Shown here: piece after piece, positions 19,095-40,149 of the stretch
Numbering within the stretch: the stretch's first letter is position 1
Layout: each line of letters starts with the position of its first letter
DNA from: Deferrisomatales bacterium
Lineage (GTDB): Bacteria; Desulfobacterota; Deferrisomatia; Deferrisomatales; JACRMM01
NCBI GenBank assembly: GCA_033551855.1
Contig: JAWSUI010000026.1
Coordinates: 1-51,920, forward strand
Reading direction: 5' to 3'
DNA: 51,920 bases
Notes under the pieces: model-generated
The model's database searches: none
The model's input: the letters and a program-made list of their open reading frames with translations, nothing else
What the model was told of the DNA's origin: nothing
Position numbers and translations under genes: made by a program

Positions 19095-19799
19095 CTACGC
19101 GTCCCCCACCTTTTTCGCCACCTCGCGCACGTTGTCGTCGTCCTTGATGCAGACCGGATAGGCCGCGGGAAGCTTGTCGGGGAGGGTGAGGCCGGCGGTT
19201 GCGAACTCGCTGGTGATGACACCGGTGGGGCAGACCTCGAGGCAGGGCATCTCGCGGCCCTTGGCGCACTCGGGGCAGAGCTTGGCGGCGAGCTCCGGGT
19301 AGACGACCACTTGGCGCTCGGTTCCCCGGCCGATGAAGCCCAGCACGTTCCTGCCCTCCACCTCCGCGCATTGACGCACGCACAGGCCGCACAGGATGCA
19401 GTAGGTGGTGTGCTTCTGGAAACGGTCGGGGTCGGCCCCGTACCTCTCCAGGAGGGCGGGGTCCACCCGGTCCCACCGGGCCGCCAGGAGCTCGAGGATC
19501 AGCTTTCGGTGGTGGGCGATCTTGTCGGTCTCGGTCTGGACCTCGAGGCCTTCCTCCACCGGGTAGAGGCACGAGACGACCGTGCGAGAGCGCCGGCCCG
19601 CCATGACCTCCACGAGGCACAGGCGGCAGGAGCCGAACCCGGAGAGCTCCTCCAGATAGCACAGGGTGGGGATCTCGATGCCGGCCTCGCGCGCCGCCTG
19701 GAGGACGGTCATCCCTTCCCGGGCGTCCACGGGCCTGCCGTCGATGGTGAGCTTCACGGGGGCGCCGAGGGCTTCGGCAGGCGCTGCGGGTGGGGACAT
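19095..19799 (-). CDS. short NuoG/HydA-N-terminus-like Fe-S subunit (no catalytic domain)
   Basis: IPTLC...GSCRLCLVE...SC [2Fe-2S], CILCGLCVRQC, CPEC...CLEVCPTG; only 234 aa. Confidence 0.85.
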   Translation of the reverse strand: MSPPAAPAEALGAPVKLTIDGRPVDAREGMTVLQAAREAGIEIPTLCYLEELSGFGSCRLCLVEVMAGRRSRTVVSCLYPVEEGLEVQTETDKIAHHRKLILELLAARWDRVDPALLERYGADPDRFQKHTTYCILCGLCVRQCAEVEGRNVLGFIGRGTERQVVVYPELAAKLCPECAKGREMPCLEVCPTGVITSEFATAGLTLPDKLPAAYPVCIKDDDNVREVAKKVGDA

Positions 19800-19848
19800 G
19801 GGGAGACCTCTTCGGACGGGATCACGTAGCTGGGTGAAGAGCATTTTA

Positions 19849-20026
19849 GACGGGATAACGGGATGGACGGGATGGCATAAGGAGAGGACCCATCCTGAGT
19901 ATCCTGTCATCCTGTCAAGATTTGTCTTCGGCTTCAAACAAGAAAAAACAACCTTTCGACAGGATAACAGGATGGGCAGGATGACCCGTCAAGAGAACCT
20001 TATCCAGAAAATCCCGTAATCCCGTC
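19849..20026. repeat. two GACRGGAT-family inverted-repeat units (family A)
   Basis: GACGGGATAACGGGATGGACGGGATG...CATCCTGAGTATCCTGTCATCCTGTC, then GACAGGATAACAGGATGGGCAGGATG...ATCCAGAAAATCCCGTAATCCCGTC. Confidence 0.88.
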
Positions 20027-21965
20027 AAATTTGTTCTTTCTCTACCCCCTTCTTCCCCTTCGCGGCCCGCACCGCGAGGTCCTCCGGCGGGGTGGGGACG
20101 GGAGTGCCGGAGAGCTTGGTGACCGCGCGGGTCTTGGGGGGGCAGACCTGGAAGCAGGTGTCGCACTTGGTGCACAGGGACTGGTCCACCACGTGGATCT
20201 GCTTCTTCTCGCCGGCGATCGCGCCCACCGGACAGTTCTTCTTGCACAGCCCGCAGGCGATGCACTTGTCCGGGTCGACCCAGTAGCTCGTCAGGGCCTT
20301 GCACACGAGCGCGGGGCAGCGCTTCTCCTCCACGTGGGCGATGTACTCGTCGCGGAAGTACCGGATGGAGGAGAGTACCGGGTTCGGGGCGCTCTGGCCC
20401 AGGGCGCACAGGGACGCGTCCTGCACAGTGGTGGAGAGATCCTCCAGGAGCTCCACGTCACCCTTTCGCCCCTCGCCCTTCACCATCCGGGTGAGGATCT
20501 GGAGCATCTGCCACACGCCCTCGCGGCAGGGCACGCACTTGCCGCAGGACTCGTCGGCCAGGAACTCGAGGAAGTACTTGGCCACGTCGGGCATGCAGGT
20601 GTTGTCGTCCATGACGATCATGCCGCCAGAGCCCATCATCGAGCCCACCTTGGTGAGCTCGTCGAAGTCCACCGGCAGGTCGAGCATGCTCTCGGGGATC
20701 ACGCCCCCTGAGGGGCCGCCGGTCTGCACGGCCTTGAACGTGCGACCCTCGCGGATGCCGCCGCCGATGTCGAAGACGATGCGGCGCAGGCTCATCCCCA
20801 TGGGCACTTCCACGAGGCCCGTGTTGTTCACCTTGCCCACGAGTGAGAAGACCTTGGTGCCCTTGCTCCCCTCGGTGCCGATGCCGGCGAACCACTCGGC
20901 GCCGCGGCTGATGATGGGAGGCACGTTGGCCCAGGTTTCCACGTTGTTCAGGTTCGAGGGCTTGTCGAAGAGGCCCTTGACCGAGGTGCGGATGTACTTG
21001 GGCCGGGGCTCGCCCACTTTGCCCTCGATGGAGCTCATCAGCGCGCTCGACTCGCCCGAGACGAAGGCCCCGGCGCCCCGGTAGATGAGGATCTCGAAGG
21101 AGAACCCGGTGCCCAGGATGTTCTCGCCCAGGAGCCCGGCCTCGTGGAGGTCGTCCAGAGCCCCGATCAGGTTTTCCACCGCCAGGGGGTACTCCTGGCG
21201 CACGTACACGTAGCCGGTGCGGGCGCCGATGGCGTAGCCGCCGATGATGAACCCCTCGAGCACCGAGTGGGGGTTGCCCTCCAGGATCGACCGGTCCATG
21301 TAGGCCCCGGGGTCGCCCTCGTCGGCGTTCACGAGCACGTAGCGCTCGTCGCCGGGGGCGTTGCGGGTGGTCTCCCACTTGACGCCGGCAGGGAACCCGG
21401 CCCCGCCCCGGCCCCGGAGGTTCGACTTCTTGACCTCGGCCACCACCTGCTCGGGGGTCATGGACCCCAGCGCCTTGGCCAGCGCCCCGTAGCCCCCCAC
21501 GGCCAGGTAGTCGTCCAGGTTCGTGGGGTCGATCTTCAGGTTGTCGTGGAAGAGCAGCCGGGTCTGGTGCTTGTAGAAGGGGATGTCGTTTTCGTGGACG
21601 ACCCGCTCGCCGGCGTCCGTCCGGTAGAGGAGCCGCTCCAAGACCTTGCCCCCGACGAGGGTCTCGGCCACGATCTCGGGGACGTCCTCGACCTTCACCT
21701 TGAGGTAGCAGGTCTCCTCGGGGACCATGACCACGATGGGCCCCCGCTCGCAGAACCCGTGGCACCCGGTGCGGCGCACGTCCACCGTTTCCGTCAGGCC
21801 CCTGGCCCCGATCTCGGCCTGGAAGGCCTGGGCCACCTTCTCGCTCTGGTAGGCCCGGCACCCGGTGCCGGAACAGATCGTGACGCAGGGCTTCTTGGGG
21901 TCTCGCTTCGCCAGCACTTCCTGGCGGTAGCGCTCCAGGTCTTCCAGGGAGGTCAGTCGGGCCAT
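20025..21965 (-). CDS. long HydB/NuoF-like NADH/FMN-binding subunit
   Basis: N-terminal thioredoxin-like [2Fe-2S] (CSGTGC, GCHGFC), LRGRGGAGFP, NADEGDPGAYMDR, GAGAFVSGE, ESCGKCVPCR, C-terminal 2x[4Fe-4S]. Confidence 0.92.
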   Translation of the reverse strand: MARLTSLEDLERYRQEVLAKRDPKKPCVTICSGTGCRAYQSEKVAQAFQAEIGARGLTETVDVRRTGCHGFCERGPIVVMVPEETCYLKVKVEDVPEIVAETLVGGKVLERLLYRTDAGERVVHENDIPFYKHQTRLLFHDNLKIDPTNLDDYLAVGGYGALAKALGSMTPEQVVAEVKKSNLRGRGGAGFPAGVKWETTRNAPGDERYVLVNADEGDPGAYMDRSILEGNPHSVLEGFIIGGYAIGARTGYVYVRQEYPLAVENLIGALDDLHEAGLLGENILGTGFSFEILIYRGAGAFVSGESSALMSSIEGKVGEPRPKYIRTSVKGLFDKPSNLNNVETWANVPPIISRGAEWFAGIGTEGSKGTKVFSLVGKVNNTGLVEVPMGMSLRRIVFDIGGGIREGRTFKAVQTGGPSGGVIPESMLDLPVDFDELTKVGSMMGSGGMIVMDDNTCMPDVAKYFLEFLADESCGKCVPCREGVWQMLQILTRMVKGEGRKGDVELLEDLSTTVQDASLCALGQSAPNPVLSSIRYFRDEYIAHVEEKRCPALVCKALTSYWVDPDKCIACGLCKKNCPVGAIAGEKKQIHVVDQSLCTKCDTCFQVCPPKTRAVTKLSGTPVPTPPEDLAVRAAKGKKGVEKEQI

Positions 21966-22063: not shown

Positions 22064-22525
22064 CTACTCGCAGGCCTCGCAGACCTTCTCCAACTCCTCG
22101 GTGGTGGGGTTCGAGAGGTACTCGCCGTCCACGGTCATCACCGGCCCCAGGGCACAGCAGCCGACGCAGTTGACCGTGTGCAGCGAGAACTTGTCGTCCT
22201 TCGAGGTCCCCCCGGCCTGGATCCCCACGACGTTCGAAACCCGGTCCAGGAGCTTCTGGGCGCCGCGCACGTGGCAGGCGGTGCCCACGCACACCGACAT
22301 CTGGTGGCGCCCCTGGGGAACCAGGCTGAAGTGCTTGTAGAAGGTGGCAACGTTGTAGATCTCGCGCAGGGTCACCCCCAGGCGGTCGGAGACACGTGCG
22401 AGGACGTTGCGGGGCAACCAGCGAAGCTCCTTCTGCACGTCCAAGAGGATCTGCACCAGCGCTTCCCGCTTGGCACCGTAGCGGTCGATGATCTGGTCGA
22501 CCGGCATCAGTTTGGGATCGAGCAA
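22064..22525 (-). CDS. HydC/NuoE-like [2Fe-2S] subunit
   Basis: VATFYKHF, CVGTACHVRG, VNCVGCCALGPVM; TTG start after GGAGG (ATG 22507 alternative). Confidence 0.92.
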   Translation of the reverse strand: MLDPKLMPVDQIIDRYGAKREALVQILLDVQKELRWLPRNVLARVSDRLGVTLREIYNVATFYKHFSLVPQGRHQMSVCVGTACHVRGAQKLLDRVSNVVGIQAGGTSKDDKFSLHTVNCVGCCALGPVMTVDGEYLSNPTTEELEKVCEACE

Positions 22526-22551
22526 GGGATACCTCCGGAGCAAGTCTTTTT

Positions 22552-22742
22552 GACGGGATAACAGGATCGACTGGATTTGAAAAAGCCCATCAATGAATCC
22601 CTACCATAATCCGGTTCGTCTCGTTATACCGTGCAAGACAGAAGTCTCTTTCTTGACATGACAGGATTGACAGGATGCTGAAGGAACCAAGACCGAACCA
22701 AATTGATTTGGACTCTAATCCTGTTCATCCTGTTATCCCGTC
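22552..22742. repeat. two GACRGGAT-family inverted-repeat units (family A)
   Basis: GACGGGATAACAGGATCGACTGGATT, degenerate partner arm, GACAGGATTGACAGGATG and AATCCTGTTCATCCTGTTATCCCGTC. Confidence 0.85.
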
Positions 22743-22764
22743 AAAACAGCCTTTCCTGTCCTTT

Positions 22765-23631
<867 letters not shown>

Positions 23632-23658: not shown

Positions 23659-23698
23659 CACAGGACCTATAGGTCCTATAGGTCTCATAGGTCCTATG
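23659..23698. repeat. 9-bp tandem repeat ATAGG[AT]CCT (family B), includes sucC stop codon
   Basis: CACAGGACCTATAGGTCCTATAGGTCTCATAGGTCCTATG. Confidence 0.85.
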
Positions 23699-24863
23699 CC
23701 TTGGCCTTCGCCGCGGCCACCACCTTCTCGGCCGCCTCGCTCATGGTCTCGGCGGTGATGATGGGCAGGCCGCTCTCGGCCAGCATCTTGCGGCCCAGGT
23801 CCACGTTGGTGCCCTGGAGGCGCACTACCAGGGGGCGGTCGAGGTGCACGGTCTTGGCGGCGGCAATGATGCCCTCGGCGATGGTGTCGCAGCGCATGAT
23901 GCCGCCGAAGATGTTCACCAGCACCGCCTTGACGTTGGCATCGGAGAGGATCAGCCGGAACGCGTTGGTCACCTGCTCGGCGCTGGCGCCACCGCCCACG
24001 TCGAGGAAGTTGGCCGGCGCCGCCCCGTGGAGCTTAATGATGTCCATGGTGGCCATGGCCAGGCCCGCGCCGTTGACCATGCAGCCGATAGAGCCGTCGA
24101 GGCTGATGTAGCTGAGGTCGAACTTGGAGGCCTCGAGCTCCCGGGGGTCCTCCTCCGTCTCGTCCCGCAGGGCGGCCAGGTCCTTGTGGCGGAACAAGGC
24201 GTTGTTGTCGAAGTTCATCTTGGCGTCGAGCGCCAGCACGTCGCCCTGCTTCGTCACCACCAGGGGGTTGATCTCGAGCATGCTCGCGTCGGTCTCGAGG
24301 AAGGCGCGATAGAGGGCGGCCATGAACTTCTGGCCGTTCTTCAGGGCGTCGCCCTCGAGCCCAAGGCCGTAGGCGAGCTTGCGGGCATGGAAGGGCTGGA
24401 ACCCGGCGGCTGGGTCCACCGCCTGCTTGAGGATCTTCTCGGGGGTCTTGGCCGCCATCTCCTCGATCTCCATCCCGCCTTCGGTGGATGCCATGAGAGT
24501 GGCGAGGCCGGTGGCTCGGTCGATCACCATCCCCAGATAGAGCTCCCGGGCGATGTCGCGACCCTCCTCCACGTAGACCTTGAGCACCTCCTTGCCCTGG
24601 GGCCCGGTCTGGTGGGTCACGAGCGTCCGGCCCAGGATGCCGCTCGCGGCGGCCCTGGCCTCGGCCGGGCTCTTCACCACCTTGACGCCCCCGGCCTTGC
24701 CCCGGCCCCCCGCGTGGATCTGGGCCTTGACCACCACCACGGGCGTGCCCAGGTCCTTGGCAGCTGCCTCGGCCTCGTCCGCGGTGGAGCAGACGACGCC
24801 CCGGGGCACGGGCACCCCGTACTTCTGCAAGACCTGCTTGGCCTGGTATTCGTGGATGTTCAT
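23694..24863 (-). CDS. sucC: succinyl-CoA synthetase beta subunit
   Basis: [56 protein letters not shown]. Confidence 0.96.
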
Positions 24864-24925: not shown

Positions 24926-26602
24926 CTACCTCATGGTTCCCACGTAGCAGGCGGTGAGCTGGCGCTGGCGCACGTCGTCGGTGGTGTAGTCGGGCAGCAG
25001 CATGGGGGAGATGCGGGTGCGCTCGACGCCCGCGGCCTCGAGCTCGCGGATGTAGTCGCGCACGTGGTCGAGCTTCGGCTCCCCCGAGTCGCCCTCCAGG
25101 CTCTTCACGTAGGCGGCGGCGTTGATGCCCGCCCGCCGGCCGAAGACCAGGATGTCGAGGAGCGAGTTGCCCATGAGGCGGTTCTCGCCGTGCACTCCCC
25201 CGCTGGTCTCCCCGGCGGCGTAGAGCCCCGGCACGCCGGTCTCGGCGTCCTGGTCGATCTTGATCCCGCCGTTCTGGTAGTGCAGCGTCGGGTAGATGAG
25301 CATCGGCTCCTTGCGGATGTCGATGCCGTACCGGATGAATTGCATGTACTTGGCTGGGAGCTCCCGCTCCACGGCGCCGGGCCCCTCGAGCTCCTCGATC
25401 ATCGGGGAGTCGAGCCACACCCCAAGCCGGCCGACCGGCGTGCGGATCCCGAGCCCTCGCTCCGCGCACTCCCGGATGATCGCGGCGCTCTCCACATCCC
25501 GGGGCTCGCGCTCGAAGACGAACTGCTCGCCCTTGATGTTCAGGAGGTTCGCCCCGAGGCCCCGGACCTTCTCGGTGATGAGGAGGCCCACGTTCTGCTC
25601 GGGGTACGCCGCGCCCGTGGGGTGATACTGCGTGGAATGGAGGAAGTCCATGGGCACGCCGGCCCGGTAGGCCAGCACCAGGCCGTCGGCCGTGGCACCG
25701 TAGTGGTTCGTGCAGGCAAAACCCTGGATATGGAGCCTCCCGTTCCCGCCCGTGGCGAGCACCACTGCCTTGGAGCGAATCACGAAGTACTCCTCGGTCT
25801 CCAGGTTGTACATCAGGGCCCCGCAGGCGCGGCCCTTGGCGTCCTTGAGGATCTCCACCGCCGCCGAGAACTCCATGATCTCGATGGCGTCCCGGCGGTT
25901 TCGAGCCTCGTCGCGCACGACCCGCATGATCTCCGACCCGGTCATGTCGCCCGCCGAGTGCATCCGTTTGCGGCTGGTGCCGCCCCCGTGGCGCACCAGC
26001 ATCCGGCCGTCGGTCCGCTTGTCGAACATCATGCCGAGCTTCTCGAGCCAGGAGATGACCAGCGGGGCGTCCCGGGTGAGGGCGGCCAGGAGGTACGGCC
26101 GGTTGGTGAAGTGGCCGCCCCCCAGGGTGTCGATGAAGTGGAAGTAGGGGCTGTCCACCTCGTGGTCGGCGCCCTGGATGCCGCCCTCGGCCATGACCGT
26201 GTTGGCGTCGCCGTGGCGCAGCTTGGTCGCCAGGATGACCTGGGCCCCGTTCTCCGCCGCGAGAAGCGCCGCCGCGGTGCCGCCCCCGCCGCCTCCCACC
26301 ACCAGCACGTCCGTGGTGTACTTGGGCAGGAGCGAGAAGTCCACCTGCTCCGGGTGGATCCGGGGATAGGCCTCGAAGAGGTCCACGATCTCCTCGGGGT
26401 ACACGTCGCCCTTGTTGGGGCCGAGCTTCACGGCCCGCCGTCCCTCGTCCATGTAGTCGGGGTGGAACTTCTTGAGAACGTCCGCCCGCTCGTCCAAGGT
26501 CATGGGCGTGAAGTACTCTCCCCGGCGCGTCTTCTCGATGCGCTCGGCGCGGGTGGCCTCGACCCGCTTAATCAGCTCTTTCATCTCCGGCGTGTAGCCC
26601 AT
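24926..26602 (-). CDS. soluble fumarate reductase/succinate dehydrogenase-family flavoprotein (TfrA-like)
   Basis: [49 protein letters not shown]; about 95-aa N-terminal extension, short C-terminus. Confidence 0.88.
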
Positions 26603-26659: not shown

Positions 26660-27442
26660 TTACAGATACGTCTTGTCCTTCGGCTCCCAGCCCGCCGAGT
26701 CGAGAGGCTCGGGCTCCCGGGCCACGTAGAGCTTGCGCAGCTCGTCCTCCGGTTTCTGGGCGAGCTCCTCCAGCATCTTGTCGTAGCGGCCGGCGAGAAT
26801 CTGCTCCACGCGGCTCTCCAGGTGCGCGGCCTCGGGGAGCACGTACCTGCCGTAGAGCCGGCGACAGAGCTGGGCCACGTGGTAGTGGGCGATCTGGGCC
26901 GGGCACCGGGCCGAGCACAGCCCGCACTGGATGCAGTCGAAGGAGACCTTTGCGGCCCGGGACGCGTCGCCCCGCATGGCCGCGTTGATGTACTCCATGA
27001 CGTCGATCTCCATCGGGCACGCCCGGGTGCAGGAGTTGCACCCCACGCACTTCATCACCTCGGGGTAGAGCATGCCCACCACGTCCCCGGAGCCCGAAAG
27101 GGCGTCCAGGTCGTACACCGCCTTGTTGGCCGGGAAGAAGGGGAGCTGCGCCAGCACCATGTTCTCCTCGATCACGGTCTGGCAGGCGAGCCCGAAGTGG
27201 AGCTGGTAATCCCCCTGCACGCGCCACACGGTAGGGCAGGCGCCGCAGATGCCGCCGCGGCACCCGCAGGCCCGGATGAACTGGTAACCGGCGTACTCGA
27301 TGGCCTTCTGGATGGTGAGCGTCTCGGGGAGCATGTACTTCTTCCCCATGACGTACACGGGGATCATCTTCGCCCCCTCGGGCAGGATCGTCCGGTCGCC
27401 GCTGGCGATCGTCTGGTGTCTCTTGGCAGCTTCCGCGGTCAT
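26660..27442 (-). CDS. fumarate reductase-type Fe-S subunit ([2Fe-2S] + 2x[4Fe-4S])
   Basis: CGCRGGICGAC...LACQT, CVGCNSCTRACP, CIQCGLCSARCP; GAGGAGG RBS. Confidence 0.85.
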   Translation of the reverse strand: MTAEAAKRHQTIASGDRTILPEGAKMIPVYVMGKKYMLPETLTIQKAIEYAGYQFIRACGCRGGICGACPTVWRVQGDYQLHFGLACQTVIEENMVLAQLPFFPANKAVYDLDALSGSGDVVGMLYPEVMKCVGCNSCTRACPMEIDVMEYINAAMRGDASRAAKVSFDCIQCGLCSARCPAQIAHYHVAQLCRRLYGRYVLPEAAHLESRVEQILAGRYDKMLEELAQKPEDELRKLYVAREPEPLDSAGWEPKDKTYL

Positions 27443-27502: not shown

Positions 27503-27596
27503 TCAGCTCTCAGCGTTCCGCCTCCAGCCAAACCTTCCCCTATCGATTCCGCTCCAGGCTGACGGCTGACCGCTGACCGCTGACAGCCGACGGCTA
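27503..27596. repeat. 7-bp tandem repeat GCTGACN (family D) with degenerate complementary arm
   Basis: GCTGACG GCTGACC GCTGACC GCTGACA GCCGACG GCTAG (27558-27596, overlaps upstream gene's stop); TCAGCTCTCAGC arm at 27503. Confidence 0.8.
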
Positions 27597-28727
27597 GTTG
27601 AACGCCCCCGACTCCTCCTCCAGCTCGTCCTCCCGGAAGACCGTGAGCGGGATGGGGTCTTCGAGGTCCCGGCCGGGCTCGTACTCGAGCATGCCCTGGA
27701 CGCCCTGGGCCACGCTGCGAAAGAGGGTCGCCACCGGCAGCCCCATGGGGCAGGCCGTGTCGCACAGGCCGCACCCGATGCAGGAGCTCGCCATGTGGTT
27801 GAGGCGCGTCAAGTGGAAGAGCGTCGTTTCGGCGGGCATCTTCTGCGCCCCCTTCCGCTCCGCCCACCGGGCGTAGAGCTCGCCCGGGTGATCGAAGGTG
27901 GGGGTCTTGAAGATGCACAGCTTGCAGTAGCAGATGGGGCAATTCTCCATGCAGTTGTAACAGCGGATGCAGGTCGCAAAGGCCTTCTTGAGGCCCTCGA
28001 GGCCCTTCGCGTCCGCCTGGAAGGAAGCAAACAGAGCGTCCCGGGCTTTCGTCCGCGCGGCCACGAGATCGGCCACCACCTTCCCCCGAGCTTCGACCCC
28101 GACTCCGTCGAAGGCCAGGAGTCCGGCCTTCTCTAGGGCCGCGGCGAGCTCGTCCTCCGCCTCCACGCCCATGGCCTCCCCCGCCACGGCCCCGAAAGCG
28201 TGCAGGCGCAGGTGGCCCCACTCCGCCGAGGGGTGCTCGCACACCGTGCACGCCGTGCGCAACGGCACGCCGTTGCCGGCGGGGGCGCCCGAGGCCATCG
28301 TGCCCAGGAGCTCGGCGCTCACGGCCGGGGCATCCTGGCCCGACTCGTGGAAGGCCTTGAGCTCGAAGGTGCCCGGGCAGTCCACGGTGACGAAGGTGAG
28401 GTTGCCCGGGGTGATCTGTTTGAGCTTGATCAGCTCCACCGCCGCCCTGGCCTCGCAGGGCCGGAGCAATACGGCCACACGGCGGCCGGGGTCGGTGAAG
28501 GTGAGCTGCTGCACCGCCCGCCCGCCCTGCACCGGCATCACCGGCGACCAGGGGTTGGCGCCCTCCACCCGGTCGGCCGACGCAAACAGGCTCAGCATGG
28601 TGGTCCCCGCCCCCGTCCGGGCCGGCACCAGGAGCTCGTCCACGACCTCCTTCTCGAGGAGGCCCTTCAGGAGCGCCTCCACCGCCTGGAGGGGGGCGCC
28701 GTTGGTGGGGAGAAGAGTCTTCTTCAT
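27594..28727 (-). CDS. FdhB/FrhB-like (F420 dehydrogenase beta-like) polyferredoxin subunit
   Basis: LRPCEARA.VEL.K, VDCPGT, CTVC, CIRCYNCMENCPICYCKLC, FHLTRLNHMASSCIGCGLCDTACP. Confidence 0.82.
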   Translation of the reverse strand: MKKTLLPTNGAPLQAVEALLKGLLEKEVVDELLVPARTGAGTTMLSLFASADRVEGANPWSPVMPVQGGRAVQQLTFTDPGRRVAVLLRPCEARAAVELIKLKQITPGNLTFVTVDCPGTFELKAFHESGQDAPAVSAELLGTMASGAPAGNGVPLRTACTVCEHPSAEWGHLRLHAFGAVAGEAMGVEAEDELAAALEKAGLLAFDGVGVEARGKVVADLVAARTKARDALFASFQADAKGLEGLKKAFATCIRCYNCMENCPICYCKLCIFKTPTFDHPGELYARWAERKGAQKMPAETTLFHLTRLNHMASSCIGCGLCDTACPMGLPVATLFRSVAQGVQGMLEYEPGRDLEDPIPLTVFREDELEEESGAFN

Positions 28728-28881: not shown

Positions 28882-29328
28882 TCACACGTCCCAGTGTTGC
28901 TTGAACTCGCAGGGGCCGAGCTTCCGAATGGCCCCCGTCATCTCGGTGACGGTCTCGGCGAAGAGCCGCCCCTCGCTCGCGCTGATCCACCGCAGCCAAA
29001 TCCGCTCCTCGGGGATTCCGAGCTGGGAGAGGATGTTCCGCAGGATGGCCACCCGCCTGCGGGCCTTGAAGTTGCCCGACTGGTAGTGGCAGTCGCCCGG
29101 GTGGCACCCTCCGATGAGCACGCCGTCGGCCCCGTCCATCAGGGACTTCAGCGCGTACACCACGTCCATGGCCCCGGAGCACATGAGGTGGACCACGCGG
29201 ATGTTCGACGGGTACTGCTGGCGGGTGGTCCCCGCCAGATCCGCCCCCGTGTACGTGCACCAGTGGCAGAGAAAGGCCACGATGCGGGGTTCGAAGTCGG
29301 TGGAGGTAGCGACTGCCTGTGCCAACAT
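28882..29328 (-). CDS. mvhD: MvhD-type [2Fe-2S] subunit
   Basis: FLCHWCTYTGADLAG, MCSG, GADGVLIGGCHPGDCHYQSGN, WISASEG. Confidence 0.93.
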   Translation of the reverse strand: MLAQAVATSTDFEPRIVAFLCHWCTYTGADLAGTTRQQYPSNIRVVHLMCSGAMDVVYALKSLMDGADGVLIGGCHPGDCHYQSGNFKARRRVAILRNILSQLGIPEERIWLRWISASEGRLFAETVTEMTGAIRKLGPCEFKQHWDV

Positions 29329-32400: not shown

Positions 32401-32425
32401 CCGTGTTCTTGGAAGATTCGCTCAT
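29405..32425 (-). CDS. hdrA: large HdrA-family flavoprotein with two FAD domains (1006 aa)
   Basis: [10 protein letters not shown], inserted ferredoxin ([23 protein letters not shown]), QCVGSRD..CSSVCC; then [37 protein letters not shown]-terminal ferredoxin. Confidence 0.9.
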
Positions 32426-32496: not shown

Positions 32497-33333
32497 CTAT
32501 CGAAACAACCCCGAGGGGTCCACCATGTGCTTCTTCCACCACTTCTCCCGGCCCGGGAGCTGGAGGGCCTCCCCCAGGACCTCGGTGACGTAGAGGATCG
32601 GGAAGCCGAGCCCGCTCTGGCGCATGTCCAGGTTGATCTGGCACAGGCCGCAGGAGACGACGATGGCGTCGGCGCCGGCCGACCGGGCCTGGGTCACGAG
32701 CCGGGTGCACAGCGTCTGGGCCCGGTCCCCGTGGCCAAAGGCCAGGTCCGCCCCACAGCAGTCCACCTTGTAGGACCAGTCCAGCGCGGTGGCCCCCACG
32801 GCCTCGCAGGCGGCCTCGAGCACCGTGGGGTTCTCGAAGGAGCTGCGGCCCGTGACCCGTTGGGGCCTCACGAGCTGGCATCCGTAATAGGCCACCACCT
32901 TGAGGCCCGTGAGGCGCTTCTCCACCCGGCTGCGGAGTTGGTCGATCACCCCGGGCCGCTCCAGCCAGTCCACCAGGGACAGGACCTCCATCCTACCCTC
33001 CCAGGTGAACTCCAGGACCCGCCCCAGCCTCTCGGCTTCCTCGCCGCCGTCCTCGAAGGCCGTCTTCGCCTTCTTGACGTTGTTGTAGCAGCCCGCGCAG
33101 GGGATGATCAGGTCCTTGCCGGCGGCCTGGGCGATGGCGAGGTTCCTGGCAGGGAGCCCCAGCCCCACGAAGTGGTTCACGTTGTGGGCGGAGGCACCCC
33201 CGCAGCAGTTCCAGTCCTCGATCTCCTGCAGGCCGTAGCCCAGCGCCTCGAACACCCCCACCGTCGATGCGTTGAACTCCCAGCCCGTGGAGTGGGCCGT
33301 GCAGCCCGGGTAATAGCTGAAATCCATGTTCAT
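32497..33333 (-). CDS. hdrB: heterodisulfide reductase subunit B (copy 2)
   Basis: [35 protein letters not shown] (two CCG domains). Confidence 0.92.
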
Positions 33334-33409: not shown

Positions 33410-33952
33410 TCAAAGCTTCAGCCCCGACTCGTCGAAGATCTTCGCCACCTGGGCCTTCCCCTTCACCGAGGAGGGCATCAGCGGGATCTTTCCCTTGGCG
33501 AAGAGCTTCGCGCCTCCGAGGGCCTCTCCCATGAACCCCTTCTGGAGGAACATCTTGCTCCTCCACATGAACTCCGCGAGCATCGTGGCCTCGTGGACCC
33601 GGCCGAACCGCTTGGCGCTACCCACGAAGGCCCGGTGGAAGGCCATCACAGCGGGCTCGGGGAGCCGCCGCCCCTCCTCTACCGCCATGGATCGGAGGGC
33701 GTCCATGATGGGCGAGAGGTAGATGCCGTTCGGGCACCGCGTCCCGCAGGTCTCGCAAGTGACGCACATCCAGATGGCGCTGGAGCCCAGGAGCTCCTCC
33801 TTCATCCCCTTCTGGACCATGCGGACCACGCCGTGGTTGGGCCACTCGAACCAGGGGACCGTGGGGCAGCCCCCCGTGCACTTCTTGCACTGGTAGCAGC
33901 GGGAGAGGTTCTGCCCGCTGCTTTCTTGGATTTCTGCTGCAAACGGGTGCAT
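33410..33952 (-). CDS. hdrC: heterodisulfide reductase subunit C (copy 2)
   Basis: CYQCKKCTGGCP, IWMCVTCETCGTRCPNG. Confidence 0.9.
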   Translation of the reverse strand: MHPFAAEIQESSGQNLSRCYQCKKCTGGCPTVPWFEWPNHGVVRMVQKGMKEELLGSSAIWMCVTCETCGTRCPNGIYLSPIMDALRSMAVEEGRRLPEPAVMAFHRAFVGSAKRFGRVHEATMLAEFMWRSKMFLQKGFMGEALGGAKLFAKGKIPLMPSSVKGKAQVAKIFDESGLKL

Positions 33953-34020: not shown

Positions 34021-35769
34021 CTACCCGCAGGCCGCCTCGCCCTCGGGCTCGGTGAAGATCTCGATCTCGCCGATCACCTGGACCGGGCTGTCGTTCTTGA
34101 GCTGGCAGGCCTTGTTCGGGCACACGGCCACGCACGCGCCGCAGCCCTGGCACAGGGCCTCGTTGACCCGGCTGAACCGCACCCGTTCGTCGAGCTCGCG
34201 GGCGCCGTAGGGGCAGATGGGCACGCACAGGCCGCACGCGGAGCAGATGTCGGGGTCCACCCGTGCCACCAGCGGGTCCTGGGCGAGCTCCTCGTTGGCG
34301 AAGAGGCTCTGCACCTTGGACGCCGTGGCCAGGGCCTGGGCCACGGAGTCGGTGATGTCCTTGGGGTACTGCCCGGCACCGGCGAGGTACACGCCCCGGG
34401 TCGAGCTCTCCACCGGCCGCAGCTTGATGTGGCTCTCCTGGAAGAAGCCGTTCTGGTCCACGCTGGCGCGAAAGAGGCTCGCCACCTCCTCGTACCCGGG
34501 CGAGGGCTCCACCGCCATGGCCAGCACCACGAGGTCAGAGGTGAGCTCGAGCTTCTCTCCGGTGAGGGTGTCGGCGGTCCAAAGAGCCAACCGATCGCCC
34601 TCTCTCCAAACCTTCGAGACCCGGCCCCTGATGTAGACGAGCCCCCCTTCCTCGATGTTCCGCTGGCAGTACTCCTCCGTGTCCTTGCAGTCGGTACGGA
34701 TGTCCATGTAGGAGACGACCACCCGACCCCCGGGGCTTCGCTCCTGGAAGAGGCGCGCCTGTTTGTTGGTGTAGAGGCAGCAGACTCGCGAGCAGTAGGG
34801 CTTGTGGTTCTCCGGGTCGCGGCTCCCCGAGCACTGGATGAAGACCACGTCCCGGACCGCCTTCCCGTCCGAGGGCCGGCGCACCGGCTCCCCGGAGTCG
34901 AAGCTCCGGCGCAGCAGATCCTCGAAGGCCAGGGAGTCGATGACGTCGGCCACCGCACCGCCGCCATACTCCGCCATGGCCTCCACCGGGTAGAGGCGGT
35001 AGCCCGTCGCCACGACGATGGCGCCCACGGTCTCGTCCGCCGTTTCGCGGGCGGATGTCCCGTTTCCCTTCTCGATCTTCACCTCGAAGTTGCCCACGTA
35101 CCCCGCCACCTCGGTGACCCGGCTGCCGGCGTAGAGCCGGATGTTGGGGTGGTTCTCCACGGCCTCGACCCGGGGCGCCAGGATGTCCCGGGCGTCCTCG
35201 TGATAGGGGAAGGTCTTGGAGAGGCGCCGCACGTTGCCGCCGAGCTCGGCCTCCCGCTCCACCACGACCGTCTCGTACCCTGCGTCGGCGAGGTCGAGGG
35301 CCGCGGACAGGCCGGCGATGCCCGCACCGACCACCAGGGCCCGCTTGGTCAGGGGTACCCGGATGGCCTCCAGGGAGGCGTTCTTGCGAACCTTCTCCAT
35401 GGTGGCCCGGATGATGTTGAACGCCTTGCGGGTCGCGGCGCCCTTGTCGCGCTGGTGCACCCAGGAGCACTGCTCCCGCACGTTGGCGATCTCCACGAGG
35501 AAGGGGTTCAGCCCCACCGACGCGGCGGCCTTTCGGAAGGTGTTCTCGTGCATCCGCGGGGAGCAGGAGGCCACCACTAGCCGGTCGATCCCCTTCTCCT
35601 GGATGGCGGTCTTGATCCGGTCCTGCCCGGGGTCCGAGCACATGTACATGTAGTTCTCGGCGTGGACCACGTCGGGGATCCGGCGGAGATCCTCCACCAG
35701 CTCGTGCACGTCCACCGTGCCCGCGATGTTCGACCCGCACCAGCAGATGAAGACGCCGATTCGATTCAT
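34021..35769 (-). CDS. hdrA: HdrA-family flavoprotein A' (N-terminal Fe-S domain, FAD, C-terminal ferredoxin; no inserted ferredoxin)
   Basis: IGVFICWCG, MCS, SCSPRMHE, NVREQCSW, ALVVGAGIAG, QCSGSRD..CSRVCC, CSACGLCVPICP, CQGCGACVAVCP. Confidence 0.92.
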   Translation of the reverse strand: MNRIGVFICWCGSNIAGTVDVHELVEDLRRIPDVVHAENYMYMCSDPGQDRIKTAIQEKGIDRLVVASCSPRMHENTFRKAAASVGLNPFLVEIANVREQCSWVHQRDKGAATRKAFNIIRATMEKVRKNASLEAIRVPLTKRALVVGAGIAGLSAALDLADAGYETVVVEREAELGGNVRRLSKTFPYHEDARDILAPRVEAVENHPNIRLYAGSRVTEVAGYVGNFEVKIEKGNGTSARETADETVGAIVVATGYRLYPVEAMAEYGGGAVADVIDSLAFEDLLRRSFDSGEPVRRPSDGKAVRDVVFIQCSGSRDPENHKPYCSRVCCLYTNKQARLFQERSPGGRVVVSYMDIRTDCKDTEEYCQRNIEEGGLVYIRGRVSKVWREGDRLALWTADTLTGEKLELTSDLVVLAMAVEPSPGYEEVASLFRASVDQNGFFQESHIKLRPVESSTRGVYLAGAGQYPKDITDSVAQALATASKVQSLFANEELAQDPLVARVDPDICSACGLCVPICPYGARELDERVRFSRVNEALCQGCGACVAVCPNKACQLKNDSPVQVIGEIEIFTEPEGEAACG

Positions 35770-35872: not shown

Positions 35873-37198
35873 TCACGCCGCCTCGCGGCGCAGCCGCGAG
35901 AGGAACACCTGCACCTTGCTCGCAGCCGCCGAGGCGTGGGCCACGGTGTCGGCGATGTCCCGGGGGCCCTGGCAGGTGCCGGCGACGACGATCCCCTCCC
36001 GGCCGGTCTCCACCGACCCCACCTTGTAGTGGAGCTCCCGGAAGAAGCCGTTGTCGTCCACGGGGATGCCCAGCGTCCGCGCGAGCTCGACCTGCTCCGG
36101 GTTGGGCACGGCGGCCATGGCCAGCACCACCAGGTCGGTATGTACCTCCACGGGCTGTCCCGAGAGGGTGTCGGTCCCCCAGACGACGACCTTGTCGCCG
36201 TCTCGAAAAATCTTGGAGACCCGGCCCCGTACGTAGACCAGGCCCTCCTCCTCTGTGGACTGCTGGAGGAACTCCTCGTAGCCCTTCCCGGTGCAGCGAA
36301 GGTCCATGTAGAACAGGGTCGCCCGGCCGTGGTGCTCCTTGTGCTTGTAGAGGCGGGCGTGCTTCGCCGAGTACATGCAGCAGATACGGCTGCAGTAGGG
36401 CTTGTGGTTTTCGGGGTCACGGCTCCCCACGCACTGGACGAACACGATGTCCTCGGGGACCTTGCCGTCCGAAGGCCGGAGCACCCGGCCCGCCGTGGGG
36501 CCCGAGGCCGAGCAGAGGCGCTCCATGGCGAAGCCGTCGATCACGTCCGGGACCGTGCCGTACCCATACTCGCCCATGGCCGAGATGGGGTAGAGCTCGA
36601 AGCCCGTGGCCACCACCACGGCCGCCACGTCCTCCTCGACGGTGCTCTCCTCCTGGTCGTAGACGATCGCCCCCACCGGGCAGACTTTCGCGCACACGCC
36701 GCACTTGCCGTACAGGAGGTAGCGGCAGTGTTCCTGGTCGATGATGGGCTTGTTGGGGACCGCCTGGGGCGAGAGGGTGTAGATGGCCTTCTTGGCCCCC
36801 ACGCCCCGCTCGAAGGCATTGGTGGGCACCTTGGTGGGGCACTTCTCCTGGCAGGCGCCGCAGCCCGTGCACTTCGTCCAGTCCACGTAAGACTTCTTGC
36901 GCCGGATCCGGGCGCGGTACGCCCCGGGCTCCCCCTCCAACCCCACGACCTCGCTCCAGGTGTAGAGCTGGATGTTCGGGTGTTGGCCCGTCTCCACCGT
37001 CCGCGGTGTGAGGGTGCACTGGGCGCAGTCCAACGTCGGGAAGGTCTCGGAGAGCTGGAGCATCCGGCCACCCACGCTGGGCAGGCGCTCCACCATCACC
37101 ACCTGGTGCCCCGCGTCTCCCAGGTCCACCGCCGCGGTGATGCCGGCGATCCCGCCGCCGATGACCAGGACGCGCTGTTTGTCGTTCAGATCAACCAT
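35873..37198 (-). CDS. hdrA: short HdrA-family flavoprotein (FAD + inserted ferredoxin; QmoA-sized)
   Basis: VLVIGGGIAG, TFPTLDCAQC, CTGCGACQEKCP, CGVCAKVCP, QCVGSRD..CSRICCMY; lacks N-terminal and C-terminal Fe-S domains. Confidence 0.9.
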   Translation of the reverse strand: MVDLNDKQRVLVIGGGIAGITAAVDLGDAGHQVVMVERLPSVGGRMLQLSETFPTLDCAQCTLTPRTVETGQHPNIQLYTWSEVVGLEGEPGAYRARIRRKKSYVDWTKCTGCGACQEKCPTKVPTNAFERGVGAKKAIYTLSPQAVPNKPIIDQEHCRYLLYGKCGVCAKVCPVGAIVYDQEESTVEEDVAAVVVATGFELYPISAMGEYGYGTVPDVIDGFAMERLCSASGPTAGRVLRPSDGKVPEDIVFVQCVGSRDPENHKPYCSRICCMYSAKHARLYKHKEHHGRATLFYMDLRCTGKGYEEFLQQSTEEEGLVYVRGRVSKIFRDGDKVVVWGTDTLSGQPVEVHTDLVVLAMAAVPNPEQVELARTLGIPVDDNGFFRELHYKVGSVETGREGIVVAGTCQGPRDIADTVAHASAAASKVQVFLSRLRREAA

Positions 37199-37216: not shown

Positions 37217-38083
37217 TCACAGCCCGCGCGCCTGGAGCGCAGGCCGCGGGTCGGTGTGGTTGCGGCTCACGTCCATGGCCTCCGCCGCCTCCCCCAGGGC
37301 CAGGGCCAGGAGCTGGGTGAAGTAGAGGACCGGCAGCCCCCTGAAACCCTGCTCGGCCTTGGCCATCTCCCCCTGGCGCTCCTCGATGTTGAACTGGCAC
37401 AGCGGGCAGGCCGTCACCAGTAGCTCGGCCCCCCGCTTCCGGGCGGAGTCGATGATCTCCCGGGAGCAGCGGGTGGCCATGGCGTCGGAGTGGACCACCT
37501 GGAAGGCGCCGCAGCACTCGGCCTTCATGGGGTAGTCCACCGGCTCCGCCCCCAGGGCCCGCAGCAGATCCTCGAAGATCGAGGGGTTGTCCGGGTCGTC
37601 CATGGCCATCTCGGCCTTGGGCCGCAGGAGGAGGCACCCGTAGAACGGCGCCACCTTCAGGCCCGCCAGGGGCTTCTCCACCTTGGCAGCCAGGCTCTCG
37701 AACCCCACGTCGTCCCGGAGGACTTCCAGGTAGTGGACCACATCCAGGTCCCCGGCATAGGGCTCTTCGATGAAATCCGTCACCTTCGCCCGACGCTCCG
37801 GGTTGGTCTTCATGACGTGATTGGTGCGCTTGAGAACGTTGTGGCAGACCGCGCACAGGGTCACGAGTTTCTCGCCGCCCTTCCGGCCCCGGGCCAGTAC
37901 GCGAGTCGGCGAGGCGAGCGCCATGTCGTAGTCCTCCGCCAGGGGGAAGGTAGCCCCGCAGCACGTCCAGTAGGGCATCTCCTCGAGGGTGAAGCCGAGC
38001 TTCTCGCCCGCCGTCTTCCCGGCCTCGTCGAAGCTCTTGCCCTTCGTGTAGAGGGTGCAGCCTGGAAAATACTGATAATTCAT
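37217..38083 (-). CDS. hdrB: heterodisulfide reductase subunit B (copy 1)
   Basis: YFPGC, WTCCGA, LCAVC, FYGC, ECCGA, TACPLCQFN. Confidence 0.92.
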   Translation of the reverse strand: MNYQYFPGCTLYTKGKSFDEAGKTAGEKLGFTLEEMPYWTCCGATFPLAEDYDMALASPTRVLARGRKGGEKLVTLCAVCHNVLKRTNHVMKTNPERRAKVTDFIEEPYAGDLDVVHYLEVLRDDVGFESLAAKVEKPLAGLKVAPFYGCLLLRPKAEMAMDDPDNPSIFEDLLRALGAEPVDYPMKAECCGAFQVVHSDAMATRCSREIIDSARKRGAELLVTACPLCQFNIEERQGEMAKAEQGFRGLPVLYFTQLLALALGEAAEAMDVSRNHTDPRPALQARGL

Positions 38084-38113
38084 GTGGACTCGCCTCTCTG
38101 GAGAAGCCTTATC

Positions 38114-38193: not shown

Positions 38194-38204
38194 CAATACG
38201 TCTT

Positions 38205-38618
38205 TCAACTCAGGGACAAGAACTTCCGATACCCGCTGATGAAGGCGATCTGGGGGGCCTTCTCCAGATACTCCTTCGGGAACTTCCGGATCTCGATCTC
38301 GTTCTTGCCCTTGCGGAGTTGGAGCATCCGGATCGCTTCCATGATCCGCGCCAAGTCCACCCCCTTCGGGCACACGCTCATGCACTGGAGGCACGAGGCG
38401 CAGATCCAGGGCGTGTTGGCCTCGAAGACCCTCTCGTCGAGCCCCAGCTGCAGGTAACGGATCACCTGGCTCGGGAGCATGTCCATCTCGGGCGTGGCCG
38501 GGCAGGCAGCGGAACACTTGCCGCACTGGTAGCACCGGTACACGCTCTGGCAGGAGATCTCCTCGACCTTCTTGATCCGGTCGTTCCGTACCTTGTCGCC
38601 GTCAAGCTTCACGCGCAT
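38205..38618 (-). CDS. hdrC: heterodisulfide reductase subunit C (copy 1, short)
   Basis: CYQCGKCSAACP, WICASCLQCMSVCPKG. Confidence 0.9.
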   Translation of the reverse strand: MRVKLDGDKVRNDRIKKVEEISCQSVYRCYQCGKCSAACPATPEMDMLPSQVIRYLQLGLDERVFEANTPWICASCLQCMSVCPKGVDLARIMEAIRMLQLRKGKNEIEIRKFPKEYLEKAPQIAFISGYRKFLSLS

Positions 38619-38651
38619 GTCGATTCCTCATTCGGGCCAAAAAACCTATTT

Positions 38652-38735: not shown

Positions 38736-38758
38736 CAAGACTCCGTCGACTCACACCC

Positions 38759-39310
38759 TCACCCGACCTTGGCGTACTGCTTCCGCCCTTCGGCGTACAG
38801 GTCACCGCCGCGACAGTCGATGATGACCGTCGCGGGGAAGTCGACCACCTCCAGCCGGCGGATTGCCTCGGGCCCCAGGTCCTCGTAGGCCACGATCTCC
38901 GAGGTAACGATCCGCTTCGCAATGAGCGCCGCGGCGCCGCCCGTCGCGCCGAAGTACACCGCCTTGTGCCGCTTCATGGCCTCGACGACCTCGGCGGCGC
39001 GCTTGCCCTTGCCGATCATGCCCTTGAGCCCCAGGCCGATCAGTACCGGGCTGTAGGGGTCCATGCGATAGGAAGTGGTAGGGCCGGCGGAGCCGATGGG
39101 GCGCCCGGGGGGGGCCGGAGTCGGCCCGACGAAATAGATCACCTGGCCCCGGACATCGAAGGGCAGCGGCTTGCCGTCCCGCACGAGCTCGACGAGGCGG
39201 GCGTGGGCCGCGTCGCGCGCCGTGTACACGGCTCCGGAAAGGAGCACCGGGTCGCCGGCGGAAAGCGCCTCCACGTCGGCATCGGTGAGGGGCGTGGTGA
39301 GGCGGGTCAC
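38759..39310 (-). CDS. class I fumarate hydratase, beta subunit (Fe-S hydro-lyase family)
   Basis: YTARDAAH, GPTP, GPTTSYRMD, MIGKG, GGAAAL, DLGPEAI; GTG start overlaps alpha stop. Confidence 0.9.
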   Translation of the reverse strand: MTRLTTPLTDADVEALSAGDPVLLSGAVYTARDAAHARLVELVRDGKPLPFDVRGQVIYFVGPTPAPPGRPIGSAGPTTSYRMDPYSPVLIGLGLKGMIGKGKRAAEVVEAMKRHKAVYFGATGGAAALIAKRIVTSEIVAYEDLGPEAIRRLEVVDFPATVIIDCRGGDLYAEGRKQYAKVG

Positions 39311-40149
39311 AGCTCCACCTCCTTGTGCCGCGCCGAGTGGCACTGGATGTTCACGGCCACCGGGAGGCTCGCGATGTGGCAGGGGTGGGCCTCCACGTGC
39401 ACGTCCAGGCTGGTGGTGGTGCCGCCCAAGCCGGCGGGGCCGATCCCCATCCGGTTCACGGCCTGGAGGAGCTCCTCTTCGAGCGCGGCGTAGTAAGGGT
39501 CCGGGTTTCGCTGCCCCAGGGGGCGCAGCAGCGCGAGCTTCGACAGGTAGGCCGCCACCTCGAAGGTTCCCCCGATGCCCACCCCCACGACAGTGGGCGG
39601 GCAGGGGTTCGGGCCTGCCTGGCTCACCCGGTCGAGCACGAACCTCTTGACGCCCTCCACGCCGTCGGCGGGCCGGAGCATGGCGATACCGCTCATGTTC
39701 TCGCTGCCGCCTCCCTTGGGGGCGAACGTGACCTTCACCTGCTGCCCGGGGACGACCTTCACGTGCACCACCGCCGGGGTGTTGTCCCCGGTGTTCTTCC
39801 GACGCAGGGGGTCTGCAACGATGGACTTGCGCAGATACCCCTCCTGATAGCCCTGTCGCACCCCCTCGTTCACCGCCTCGTAGAGATCGCCCCCGACCAG
39901 GTGCACGTCCTGCCCCAGTTCCACGAAGACGACCGCGAAGCCCGTGTCCTGACACAGGGGGAGCTTCTCCTCCCGTGCGATGCGGGCGTTCTCACAGAGC
40001 TGGTCCAGAATGTCGCGGCCGGTAGGGCTTTCCTCCACCGCGCGAAAGCTGGCGAAGGCGTCGAGCACGTCCCGGCCGAGCTCGGTGTTGGCCTCGACGG
40101 CCATGCGGCGCAGGGCCTGGGAGATCTCTCGAACGTGGAGCTCGCGCAT
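39307..40149 (-). CDS. class I fumarate hydratase, alpha subunit
   Basis: PLCQDTG, NTGDNTPA, PKGGGSEN, NPCPP, GPAGLGG, HIASLPVAVNIQCHSAR; fumarase rather than tartrate dehydratase is inferred from context. Confidence 0.9.
   Translation of the reverse strand: MRELHVREISQALRRMAVEANTELGRDVLDAFASFRAVEESPTGRDILDQLCENARIAREEKLPLCQDTGFAVVFVELGQDVHLVGGDLYEAVNEGVRQGYQEGYLRKSIVADPLRRKNTGDNTPAVVHVKVVPGQQVKVTFAPKGGGSENMSGIAMLRPADGVEGVKRFVLDRVSQAGPNPCPPTVVGVGIGGTFEVAAYLSKLALLRPLGQRNPDPYYAALEEELLQAVNRMGIGPAGLGGTTTSLDVHVEAHPCHIASLPVAVNIQCHSARHKEVEL

Follow-up and report, generated by a model that had tools for sequence, protein, structure and literature searches.

A conserved gene cluster of a Deferrisomatales bacterium that may encode a soluble, Hdr-linked fumarate reductase with an exchangeable electron-input module

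What might a fumarate reductase with no membrane anchor do in the company of two sets of Hdr genes and an NADH module? This question is raised by an 18-gene run of a Deferrisomatales bacterium (assembly GCA_033551855.1) that lies within positions 1 to 51,920 of contig JAWSUI010000026.1; this whole stretch of 51,920 nucleotides is called the window below. The contig (C26) belongs to a genome (G000) of 4.24 Mb with 70% G+C that is rated 100% complete. A preliminary description, made from the window alone, had joined the encoded proteins into one cytoplasmic supercomplex. We find the cluster to be real and conserved, and we regard it as an elaborate variant of a predicted enzyme that is assembled from known modules. 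We prefer the reading, with a probability of about 0.5, that it would encode an NADH:fumarate/ferredoxin oxidoreductase that is soluble, bifurcates electrons by HdrA and takes them in through an exchangeable module.

The preliminary description gave the content and order of the run correctly. The 18 open reading frames (ORFs) are all on the minus strand, from 40149 down to 19095, and none has an internal stop. Their names are backed by Pfam or NCBIfam profile matches, and the curated family cut-offs are passed by fumarase alpha, SucC and SucD; the exception for NCBIfam is the FdhB-like protein, which has no match at 1e-15. In gene order, the products are:

39307..40149, minus strand: class I fumarase alpha (NF004885 above cut-off)
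38759..39310, minus strand: class I fumarase beta (PF05683; NF005310 and TIGR00723 above cut-off), with a 4-bp overlap with alpha
38205..38618, minus strand: HdrC1, short, 2x[4Fe-4S]
37217..38083, minus strand: HdrB1, with two intact CCG motifs
35873..37198, minus strand: HdrA1, with an FAD domain, CxxC and an inserted ferredoxin domain
34021..35769, minus strand: HdrA2, with an N-terminal cluster domain, an FAD domain and a C-terminal ferredoxin, and with neither inserted ferredoxin nor CxxC
33410..33952, minus strand: HdrC2, by profile matches
32497..33327, minus strand: HdrB2, with two intact CCG motifs
29405..32425, minus strand: HdrA3, a fused tandem HdrA of 1006 aa with the BamE layout
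28882..29328, minus strand: MvhD, short form of 148 aa (PF02662), without BamF extension or selenocysteine (Sec)
27594..28727, minus strand: FdhB/ElpB-fold Fe-S protein, by sequence and fold match
26660..27442, minus strand: Fe-S subunit of the reductase, with [2Fe-2S] and two CxxCxxCxxxC motifs and no CCG domain
24926..26602, minus strand: fumarate-reductase flavoprotein, with an N-terminal extension of ~95 aa and Asn134 at the position of the covalent-FAD His
23694..24863, minus strand: SucC (TIGR01016 above cut-off)
22765..23631, minus strand: SucD (TIGR01019 above cut-off)
22064..22507, minus strand: NuoE/HydC/BamG-like [2Fe-2S] subunit (PF01257)
20025..21965, minus strand: long NuoF/HydB/BamH-like FMN-NAD subunit with Bfu features
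19095..19799, minus strand: NuoG/BamI-like subunit with no catalytic domain and with a clade-specific C-terminal tail

The short gaps that were also described hold only in part: the 17 intergenic gaps range from -4 to 257 bp, and seven of them exceed 100 bp. It was right that the run holds no membrane anchor, hydrogenase or catalytic subunit of a formate dehydrogenase. None of these was found among the 18 genes, no transmembrane segment or Tat motif was found in any product, and the 19-residue hydropathy maximum among the products is 1.59, versus 1.98 for the SdhC-like protein of the same genome. A tartrate dehydratase reading of the fumarase genes was ruled out by family search.

The flavoprotein has the dicarboxylate-site motifs (His, Thr/Glu, Arg, His, Arg) of fumarate reductase and succinate dehydrogenase flavoproteins, the residues being placed by what we take to be the E. 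coli FrdA numbering. Its QYHPT, TEKxRG, PTxHY and NRL motifs are present in 33 of 33 homologues; its best NCBIfam family is TfrA, although the score is under the cut-off (332 vs 718 bits). In the same 33 homologues, Asn replaces the covalent-FAD His, which is a His in the aligned solved SdhA proteins. With neither this His nor a transmembrane anchor, the enzyme differs from the succinate-oxidising complex II of types A-D. L-aspartate oxidase (NadB) was considered and rejected: the flavoprotein has RHGGGTS and the separate NadB of the genome (C107) has REGGHS, the Glu of which, together with the lack of a Fe-S partner, we assume to be the hallmarks of NadB. Homologues of the Fe-S subunit amount to 2876 of 3372 candidates at E<=1e-30, and so, the family is a large one. 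Enzymes that have no covalent-FAD His reduce fumarate and do not oxidise succinate (PMC2680327), and the Asn at this position suggests that fumarate reduction is favored over succinate oxidation. We infer that the reductase is a soluble, reductive enzyme. Elsewhere, the genome has two separate His-type SdhA genes; one of these SdhAB pairs adjoins a hydrophobic cytochrome-b-like gene (a weak family match). The second His-type pair (G000:C15:65206-67845) has no anchor gene recognised alongside.

HdrA1 matches the methanogen HdrA core with an E of 5e-130 and, aligned to PDB 5ODC_A, keeps the equivalents of Glu356 and Lys409. The same motifs are kept in the N-terminal half of HdrA3, which, like HdrA1, also has CxxC and an inserted ferredoxin domain; both features are missing from HdrA2 and from the C-terminal half of HdrA3. 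The full signature (Glu356/Lys409, CxxC, inserted ferredoxin and an MvhD partner) is found only in HdrA1 and the N-terminal half of HdrA3, which points to two predicted bifurcation sites; HdrA1 is predicted to be bifurcating. For the comparison with BamE, the residue and layout features are those reported for this subunit of class II benzoyl-CoA reductase (BCRII; bioRxiv 10.64898/2026.04.10.717634). Judged by these features, HdrA1 plus HdrA2 are a split copy, and HdrA3 is a fused copy, of a BamE-type tandem. In the C-terminal half of HdrA3, a His would take the place of BamE Gln768, as mapped by motif spacing.

The two HdrB proteins are only 31% identical. HdrB1 groups with the HdrB of other fumarate-reductase-linked clusters (a 13-row clade, SH-aLRT 95, with a long-branch warning), and this clade includes loci from Syntrophobacteraceae in which the stretch covered contains no HdrA. 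HdrB of the HdrB2 side adjoins the Fe-S gene in six loci. The HdrB tree and the NuoF tree described below are quick, midpoint-rooted searches with no clade test, and we name neither a donor nor a sequence of events from them. The FdhB-like protein is of the FdhB/ElpB type by sequence and predicted fold (TM 0.65, pLDDT 79). Fourteen cysteines are among its invariant residues; the Gly-Gly motif that we take to be the FAD loop of FdhB is not conserved (alignment A4). With the cysteines kept and the loop not conserved, the protein is likely an adaptor without FAD for an input module.

The preliminary description had also called for an unknown thiol/disulfide partner, and no thiol carrier was identified. 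DsrC was rejected as the electron carrier: it is over the cut-off in none of the 21 genomes of the class sample (G000-G020), in a search whose control matched in one of 14. FlxA (the FNR-type NADH dehydrogenase) and FlxB were not found in the run, and the PF10418 matches sit on other contigs. The genome has more Hdr clusters, named from ORF starts (G000:C1:39794-55508, C1:176249-185910 and C43:999-9159). They comprise two tandem HdrA-MvhD blocks near MetF-like genes, a Flx-Hdr-like cluster, and a split HdrA pair next to genes resembling acyl-CoA dehydrogenase and electron transfer flavoprotein (ETF) genes.

The best PDB matches of NuoF are bifurcating HydB-type subunits, of which GAYMDR, GAGAFV and GGPSG are presumably the signatures. 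NuoF is 61% identical to the BamH paralogue in a bamBCDEFGHI-like cluster of the same genome (C16). A tree of 31 sequences places the 14 cassette-type NuoFs in a clade of their own (SH-aLRT 99), outside the main group of 13 Bam-type sequences, and by this tree, NuoEFG is the sister of BamGHI. NuoG has relay clusters only, as in BamI, plus the C-terminal tail. All three components of a HydABC-like Bfu module (BfuA, BfuB and BfuC) are present, BfuB with its N-terminal [2Fe-2S], FMN/NAD core, His/Cys linker site and C-terminal 2x[4Fe-4S], and the criteria of Schut et al. class the set as a Bfu module (PMC9304861). The accessible text of that paper mentions no fumarate-linked Bfu type ('fumarate' has 0 occurrences). 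The C16 cluster is a complete class II benzoyl-CoA reductase-like cluster (G000:C16:16208-27303), with an in-frame TGA (likely Sec) in both its BamF-like and its BamE-like gene. In a complex-I-like operon of the same genome (G000:C5:55378-68879), a TGA-containing formate dehydrogenase alpha takes the place of NuoG.

How would these parts work together? In our preferred reading, the soluble complex would reduce fumarate to succinate, the surplus energy would reduce ferredoxin via HdrA-type bifurcation, and NuoEFG would be a likely, optional input for NADH. Electrons from NADH would pass through the FMN of NuoF and the clusters of NuoG to the FdhB-like adaptor/MvhD and then to the FAD of HdrA1 and/or HdrA3. 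The high-potential electron would travel from HdrC to HdrB, which would hand it on directly or via a small thiol to the Fe-S subunit, the flavoprotein and fumarate, and the low-potential electron would leave through the inserted ferredoxin domain to ferredoxin (Fd). The net reaction would be 2 NADH + fumarate + 2 Fd(ox) -> 2 NAD+ + succinate + 2 Fd(red), and fumarase and SucCD would set the enzyme in the malate-to-succinyl-CoA branch. Co-transcription, assembly, electron path and direction are all predictions from the sequence. With +33 mV for fumarate, the free energy change of the 2:1:2 reaction is -49 kJ under standard conditions and -18 kJ at -280 mV for NAD and -500 mV for ferredoxin. The NAD and ferredoxin potentials are those of PMC9304861. 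Motifs, synteny and thermodynamics thus support the suggestion of the preliminary description that a soluble Hdr-coupled fumarate reductase could yield reduced ferredoxin.

As to physiology, genes for two citrate synthases, for acetyl-CoA synthase and for the futalosine menaquinone pathway are present in the host, as are 11 POR_N-family matches. In the search for ATP citrate lyase no control gave a match, and tblastn with SucC found one other homologue only. An electron-sink role or a biosynthetic C4 branch is as likely as an autotrophic role in the reductive tricarboxylic acid (rTCA) cycle. An H2-driven role is not favored, as no NiFe hydrogenase match was found in the genome; FeFe hydrogenase was not searched by family.

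The genes, their motifs, their conserved order and the patchy occurrence of NuoEFG are matters of observation. The fumA-sucD order recurs in G005, G008 and G017 (in G017 with an insertion), and fumA-sucC recurs in G012, which argues that the order is not due to chance. All 21 class genomes have a match to HdrA3 with at least 53% identity, and 19 have the FdhB-like protein. For the flavoprotein the count is 18; of the other three, G013 is frameshift-ridden, G015 is cut by a contig end, and no match was found in G014. The tail-type nuoEFG follows sucD in 10 of the 21 genomes (G000 and G012-G020; G013 via locus L026), with nuoG displaced by an insertion in G017, and this linkage holds in eight of eight genomes of the family and in two other families. 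The module is present but unlinked in G001, G002, G004 and G007, and G006 is undecidable at a contig end. Since the core is kept across the class while the inputs differ, the 15-gene core appears to be fixed and NuoEFG to be optional.

Of 34 genome loci, which come from several phyla, 22 have Hdr genes near the Fe-S/flavoprotein pair; many of the others are short. Where NuoEFG is not adjacent, other inputs are found beside the core, such as FlxBA-like genes (L013, L015) and a NiFe hydrogenase (L020), as read from ORF starts; this fits a swappable input. Versions with a single HdrA also exist (L013, L020). The NuoG tail occurs in 21 of the best 80 metagenome loci, out of 447 in all. In one of them (L091), the tail-type nuoG stands directly before fumA on an unrelated contig of 45% GC, and in another, it stands before hdrA. 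With one of the 21 tail loci adjoining fumA and one adjoining hdrA, a role of the tail as a docking peptide specific for fumarate reductase finds no support. In L145 and L148, Bfu genes occur together with hdrA, short mvhD and fdhB-like genes. Tail-type nuoEFG genes also lie behind response-regulator genes on metagenome contigs, with no catalytic partner seen there (L077, L080, L081, L084, L086). In G017, restriction-modification-like inserts break the operon between the fdhB-like and Fe-S genes and between nuoF and nuoG (L039:14058-15597, L040:4176-9022), and an insert between nuoF and nuoG is present in G020 as well. Two Heimdallarchaeota loci (L020, L021) have oxoacid oxidoreductase, HdrA, MvhD, hydrogenase-like and HdrCB genes linked to the fumarate reductase pair.

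Several points weigh against our preferred reading. The NuoEFG clade was not found in six of the 21 core-bearing class genomes (G003, G005 and G008-G011; G008 is one contig and G005 is 100% complete), and tail-type NuoEFG was found in none of five distant multi-HdrA genomes, so that the electron donor of the core there is unexplained. This distribution also tells against the single supercomplex with NuoEFG that was first proposed. A fumarate-branch neighbor is present in only one of the 21 tail-type metagenome loci, many of the contigs being short. MvhD is without the BamF extension, which binds BamI in BCRII. Because NuoF resembles a bifurcating Bfu subunit, a plain NADH-input role would leave its ferredoxin domain without a job. 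Finally, the comparison with the published TfrAB, FrdABEF and 'succinate operon' is one of gene content.

How far does the cluster go beyond systems already described? The idea of an Hdr-linked fumarate reductase is in print (Rubin-Blum 2019, Koendjbiharie 2020). In the proposal of Rubin-Blum et al., fumarate reductase and OGOR would receive the electrons that Flx-Hdr bifurcates (PMC6315080). Such an enzyme is predicted in the rTCA cluster that tubeworm symbionts and Thioflavicoccus carry (PMC6315080, PMC11636981), and Mitchell et al. reported operon-like expression of that cluster, tfrAB excepted (PMC11636981). The 'succinate operon' of Pseudoclostridium thermosuccinogenes represents the same proposal (PMC7282089). 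The accessible text of a 2026 survey still terms the bifurcating fumarate reductase a suggestion and gives ~58 kJ/mol for the energy released by NADH-driven fumarate reduction (PMC13147460, Table 1). Proposals that a soluble enzyme stores this energy in reduced ferredoxin date back to 2019; we found neither a demonstration nor a biochemical test of an Hdr-linked fumarate reductase in the literature searched. A fumarate reductase linked to a double HdrA or to Bfu was described in no paper that we found, in a search that most subscription papers lie outside. The double Hdr plus HydABC-like arrangement, which the preliminary description had singled out as unusual, is partly optional, as regards NuoEFG, and has BCRII as a structural precedent. 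The doubled HdrA unit with an optional NADH module is likely a more elaborate version of the published prediction.

The predicted Flx-Hdr fumarate reductases share with this cluster an anchorless two-subunit reductase with HdrABC, an NADH module and TCA genes, and the same proposed reaction; the likeness is by gene content. Here, in contrast, there are two tandem HdrA, two HdrBC pairs and a full-length FdhB-like protein, Bfu replaces FlxAB, SucCD are in the run, and there are no OGOR genes. BCRII, Bam[(BC)2DEFGHI]2 (also PMC9304861), resembles the cluster in its tandem HdrA, one half of which is of the bifurcating type, in its MvhD-type adaptor and in its Bfu module, the third subunit of which carries relay clusters only; Bfu-plus-HdrA wiring has been shown for BCRII (bioRxiv 10.64898/2026.04.10.717634). 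The cluster differs from BCRII in having no tungsten BamBC, in having HdrC/HdrB with intact CCG motifs instead of BamD, in its short MvhD without Sec and in the extra FdhB-like subunit; the likely high-potential acceptor is fumarate here and ETF there. BamBC, BamD and an extended Sec-BamF are absent from the window and present on C16, and so, the run does not encode a class II benzoyl-CoA reductase.

TfrAB of Methanothermobacter, which is soluble like the enzyme predicted here, has a CCG domain fused in TfrB. The Fe-S subunit of the cluster has none, and the flavoprotein misses the TfrA cut-off and carries its N-terminal extension; moreover, the CoM/CoB donors of TfrAB are methanogen cofactors. 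The type-E complex II enzymes (Wolinella MFR SdhABE, PMC2680327; Syntrophobacter FrdABEF) also have a CCG subunit and no transmembrane anchor, and MFR has the non-covalent FAD that is predicted here and shares the second [4Fe-4S] motif. FrdABEF of S. fumaroxidans is anchorless, more abundant on fumarate and described as unpurified (PMC5947623, PMC3570798). In contrast to these enzymes, the operon described here includes HdrA, MvhD and FdhB-like genes, its products have no Tat motif, and the MFR scores are far under cut-off. The methanogen Fdh/Elp-MvhD-HdrABC complexes (PDB 7BKB, 8RVU, 5ODC) share the HdrA core and the pair of MvhD and an FdhB-fold protein. The cluster differs from them in having no FdhA/ElpA or Mvh catalytic subunit, an FAD loop of FdhB that is not conserved, and HdrA that is split or tandem.

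Of the other explanations, the one that survives best, although we consider it unlikely, is that NuoEFG is a mere neighbor, a free-standing Bfu module for other partners, and that the core is fed from elsewhere, for example by ferredoxin or through a formate dehydrogenase subunit that would dock on the FdhB-like protein. NuoEFG, missing in six of the class genomes and unlinked in four, is the last block of the run, behind the 257-bp gap, and in G015, G017 and G020, it diverges more (66-74%) than the flavoprotein and SucD (82-94%). In most of the tail-type metagenome loci, neither Hdr nor Frd genes are seen as neighbors, and Fdh-alpha is above the cut-off in four of five genomes tested. However, the linkage to sucD throughout one family and in two others, and the independent nuoG-fumA junction in L091, would not be expected of a mere neighbor. 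NuoEFG also has no catalytic subunit of its own and, therefore, needs a partner, and the Fdh-alpha of this genome sits within its complex-I-like operon.

A serial wiring, which we regard as quite unlikely, would have NuoEFG confurcate NADH and reduced ferredoxin before HdrA, or would put the two HdrA in series, so that one fumarate would drive four ferredoxin electrons (3 NADH + fumarate + 4 Fd). The two complete bifurcation sites with their distinct HdrBC partners are consistent with this, as is the kinship of NuoF with BamH, with which it shares the cofactor motifs; a Bfu-to-HdrA series has been proposed from the BCRII structure (bioRxiv 10.64898/2026.04.10.717634). The 3:1:4 reaction would be near equilibrium (-30 to +25 kJ). 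On the other hand, the run encodes no low-potential acceptor beyond ferredoxin, confurcating and then re-reducing the same ferredoxin would be futile, and the core occurs without Bfu and in single-HdrA versions. If it were nevertheless true, and we doubt it, this would be the second enzyme after BCRII to chain unrelated bifurcation modules, in this case Bfu and two HdrA in series on a fumarate reductase. It would gain up to four ferredoxin electrons per fumarate and would turn the fumarate step, which is usually irreversible, into a membrane-free energy converter that works near equilibrium and has plug-in inputs.

It is improbable that the enzyme is a type-E complex II, in which HdrB1/C1 would be SdhE/F-like monotopic anchors fed by (methyl)menaquinol and HdrA would be a separate enzyme. 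HdrB1 does score about equally as HdrB (166 bits) and as MFR SdhE (162 bits), both far under the cut-offs. The Syntrophobacteraceae loci with which it groups have a layout resembling FrdABEF, which is filed as type E (PMC3570798), and the host has the futalosine menaquinone genes. However, hdrC1B1 lie directly before hdrA1, with ~10 kb between them and the flavoprotein gene; linkage of HdrA and MvhD is seen in many loci, and no Tat motif was found. Lastly, the quinone-free oxidation of succinate with NAD+ driven by reduced ferredoxin, which the preliminary description had allowed for, is very improbable: with four Fd(red) for each succinate, it would be feasible (-25 kJ at physiological potentials), and FrdABEF of S. 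fumaroxidans is detected also during propionate oxidation with sulfate (PMC5947623), but it would be uphill (+18 kJ) at two Fd, the covalent-FAD His is missing in every homologue, and the genome has separate His-type SdhA genes.

The occurrence of the core with and without Bfu within one class offers a natural comparison of how HdrA is fed, and the same comparison addresses what HdrB reduces when DsrC is absent. The cluster offers no easier purification than existing cultured models.

Turning to the control of the run, a regulator gene lies just upstream:

40446..41381, minus strand: LysR-type regulator (Pfam PF03466 and PF00126), 296 bp upstream of fumA

A similar ORF, judged from its N-terminal sequence, is upstream of fumA in G008, G012 and G017, and the regulator likely controls the operon. 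The promoter scan found 0 sigma-70-like sites, terminator-like sites are no commoner than in shuffles (5 vs 5.3; 3 vs 5.4), and the three on the coding strand are all inside genes; these scans are uninformative. Most of the long gaps contain short repeat elements that recur genome-wide:

22548..22746, no strand: inverted-repeat element that occupies most of the sucD-nuoE gap
19835-20039, 22548-22746, 38105-38206, 38643-38748, 23650-23697, 26610-26660, 29360-29400 and 32440-32490: intergenic repeats of the repeat families

Relatives of the sucD-nuoE element are also in the fumB-hdrC1, hdrC1-hdrB1 and nuoF-nuoG gaps. The repeats form three families, one of inverted pairs and two with a 9-bp periodicity, with 50, 34 and 26 matches in the genome, as compared with 0, 2 and 6 in one shuffle.

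At 8 kb upstream of fumA is a malate dehydrogenase gene of the E. coli/eukaryote type (48317-49252, minus strand; TIGR01772 above cut-off), the sole genome match in a search with the lactate dehydrogenase (LDH)-like malate dehydrogenase family. An LDH-like mdh stands directly before the cluster in the relatives G005 and G016, by N-terminal sequence, and a replacement of the gene is possible. An RND efflux set (41582-47412, plus strand) flanks the cluster, and a MASE3 hybrid histidine kinase (16074-19076, minus strand) is encoded directly downstream of nuoG. Elsewhere in the window are genes for a metallo-beta-lactamase-fold protein (5851-6837, plus strand), which scores far under the B3 cut-off, and for a nucleotidyltransferase-phosphomutase fusion (9218-11737, plus strand).

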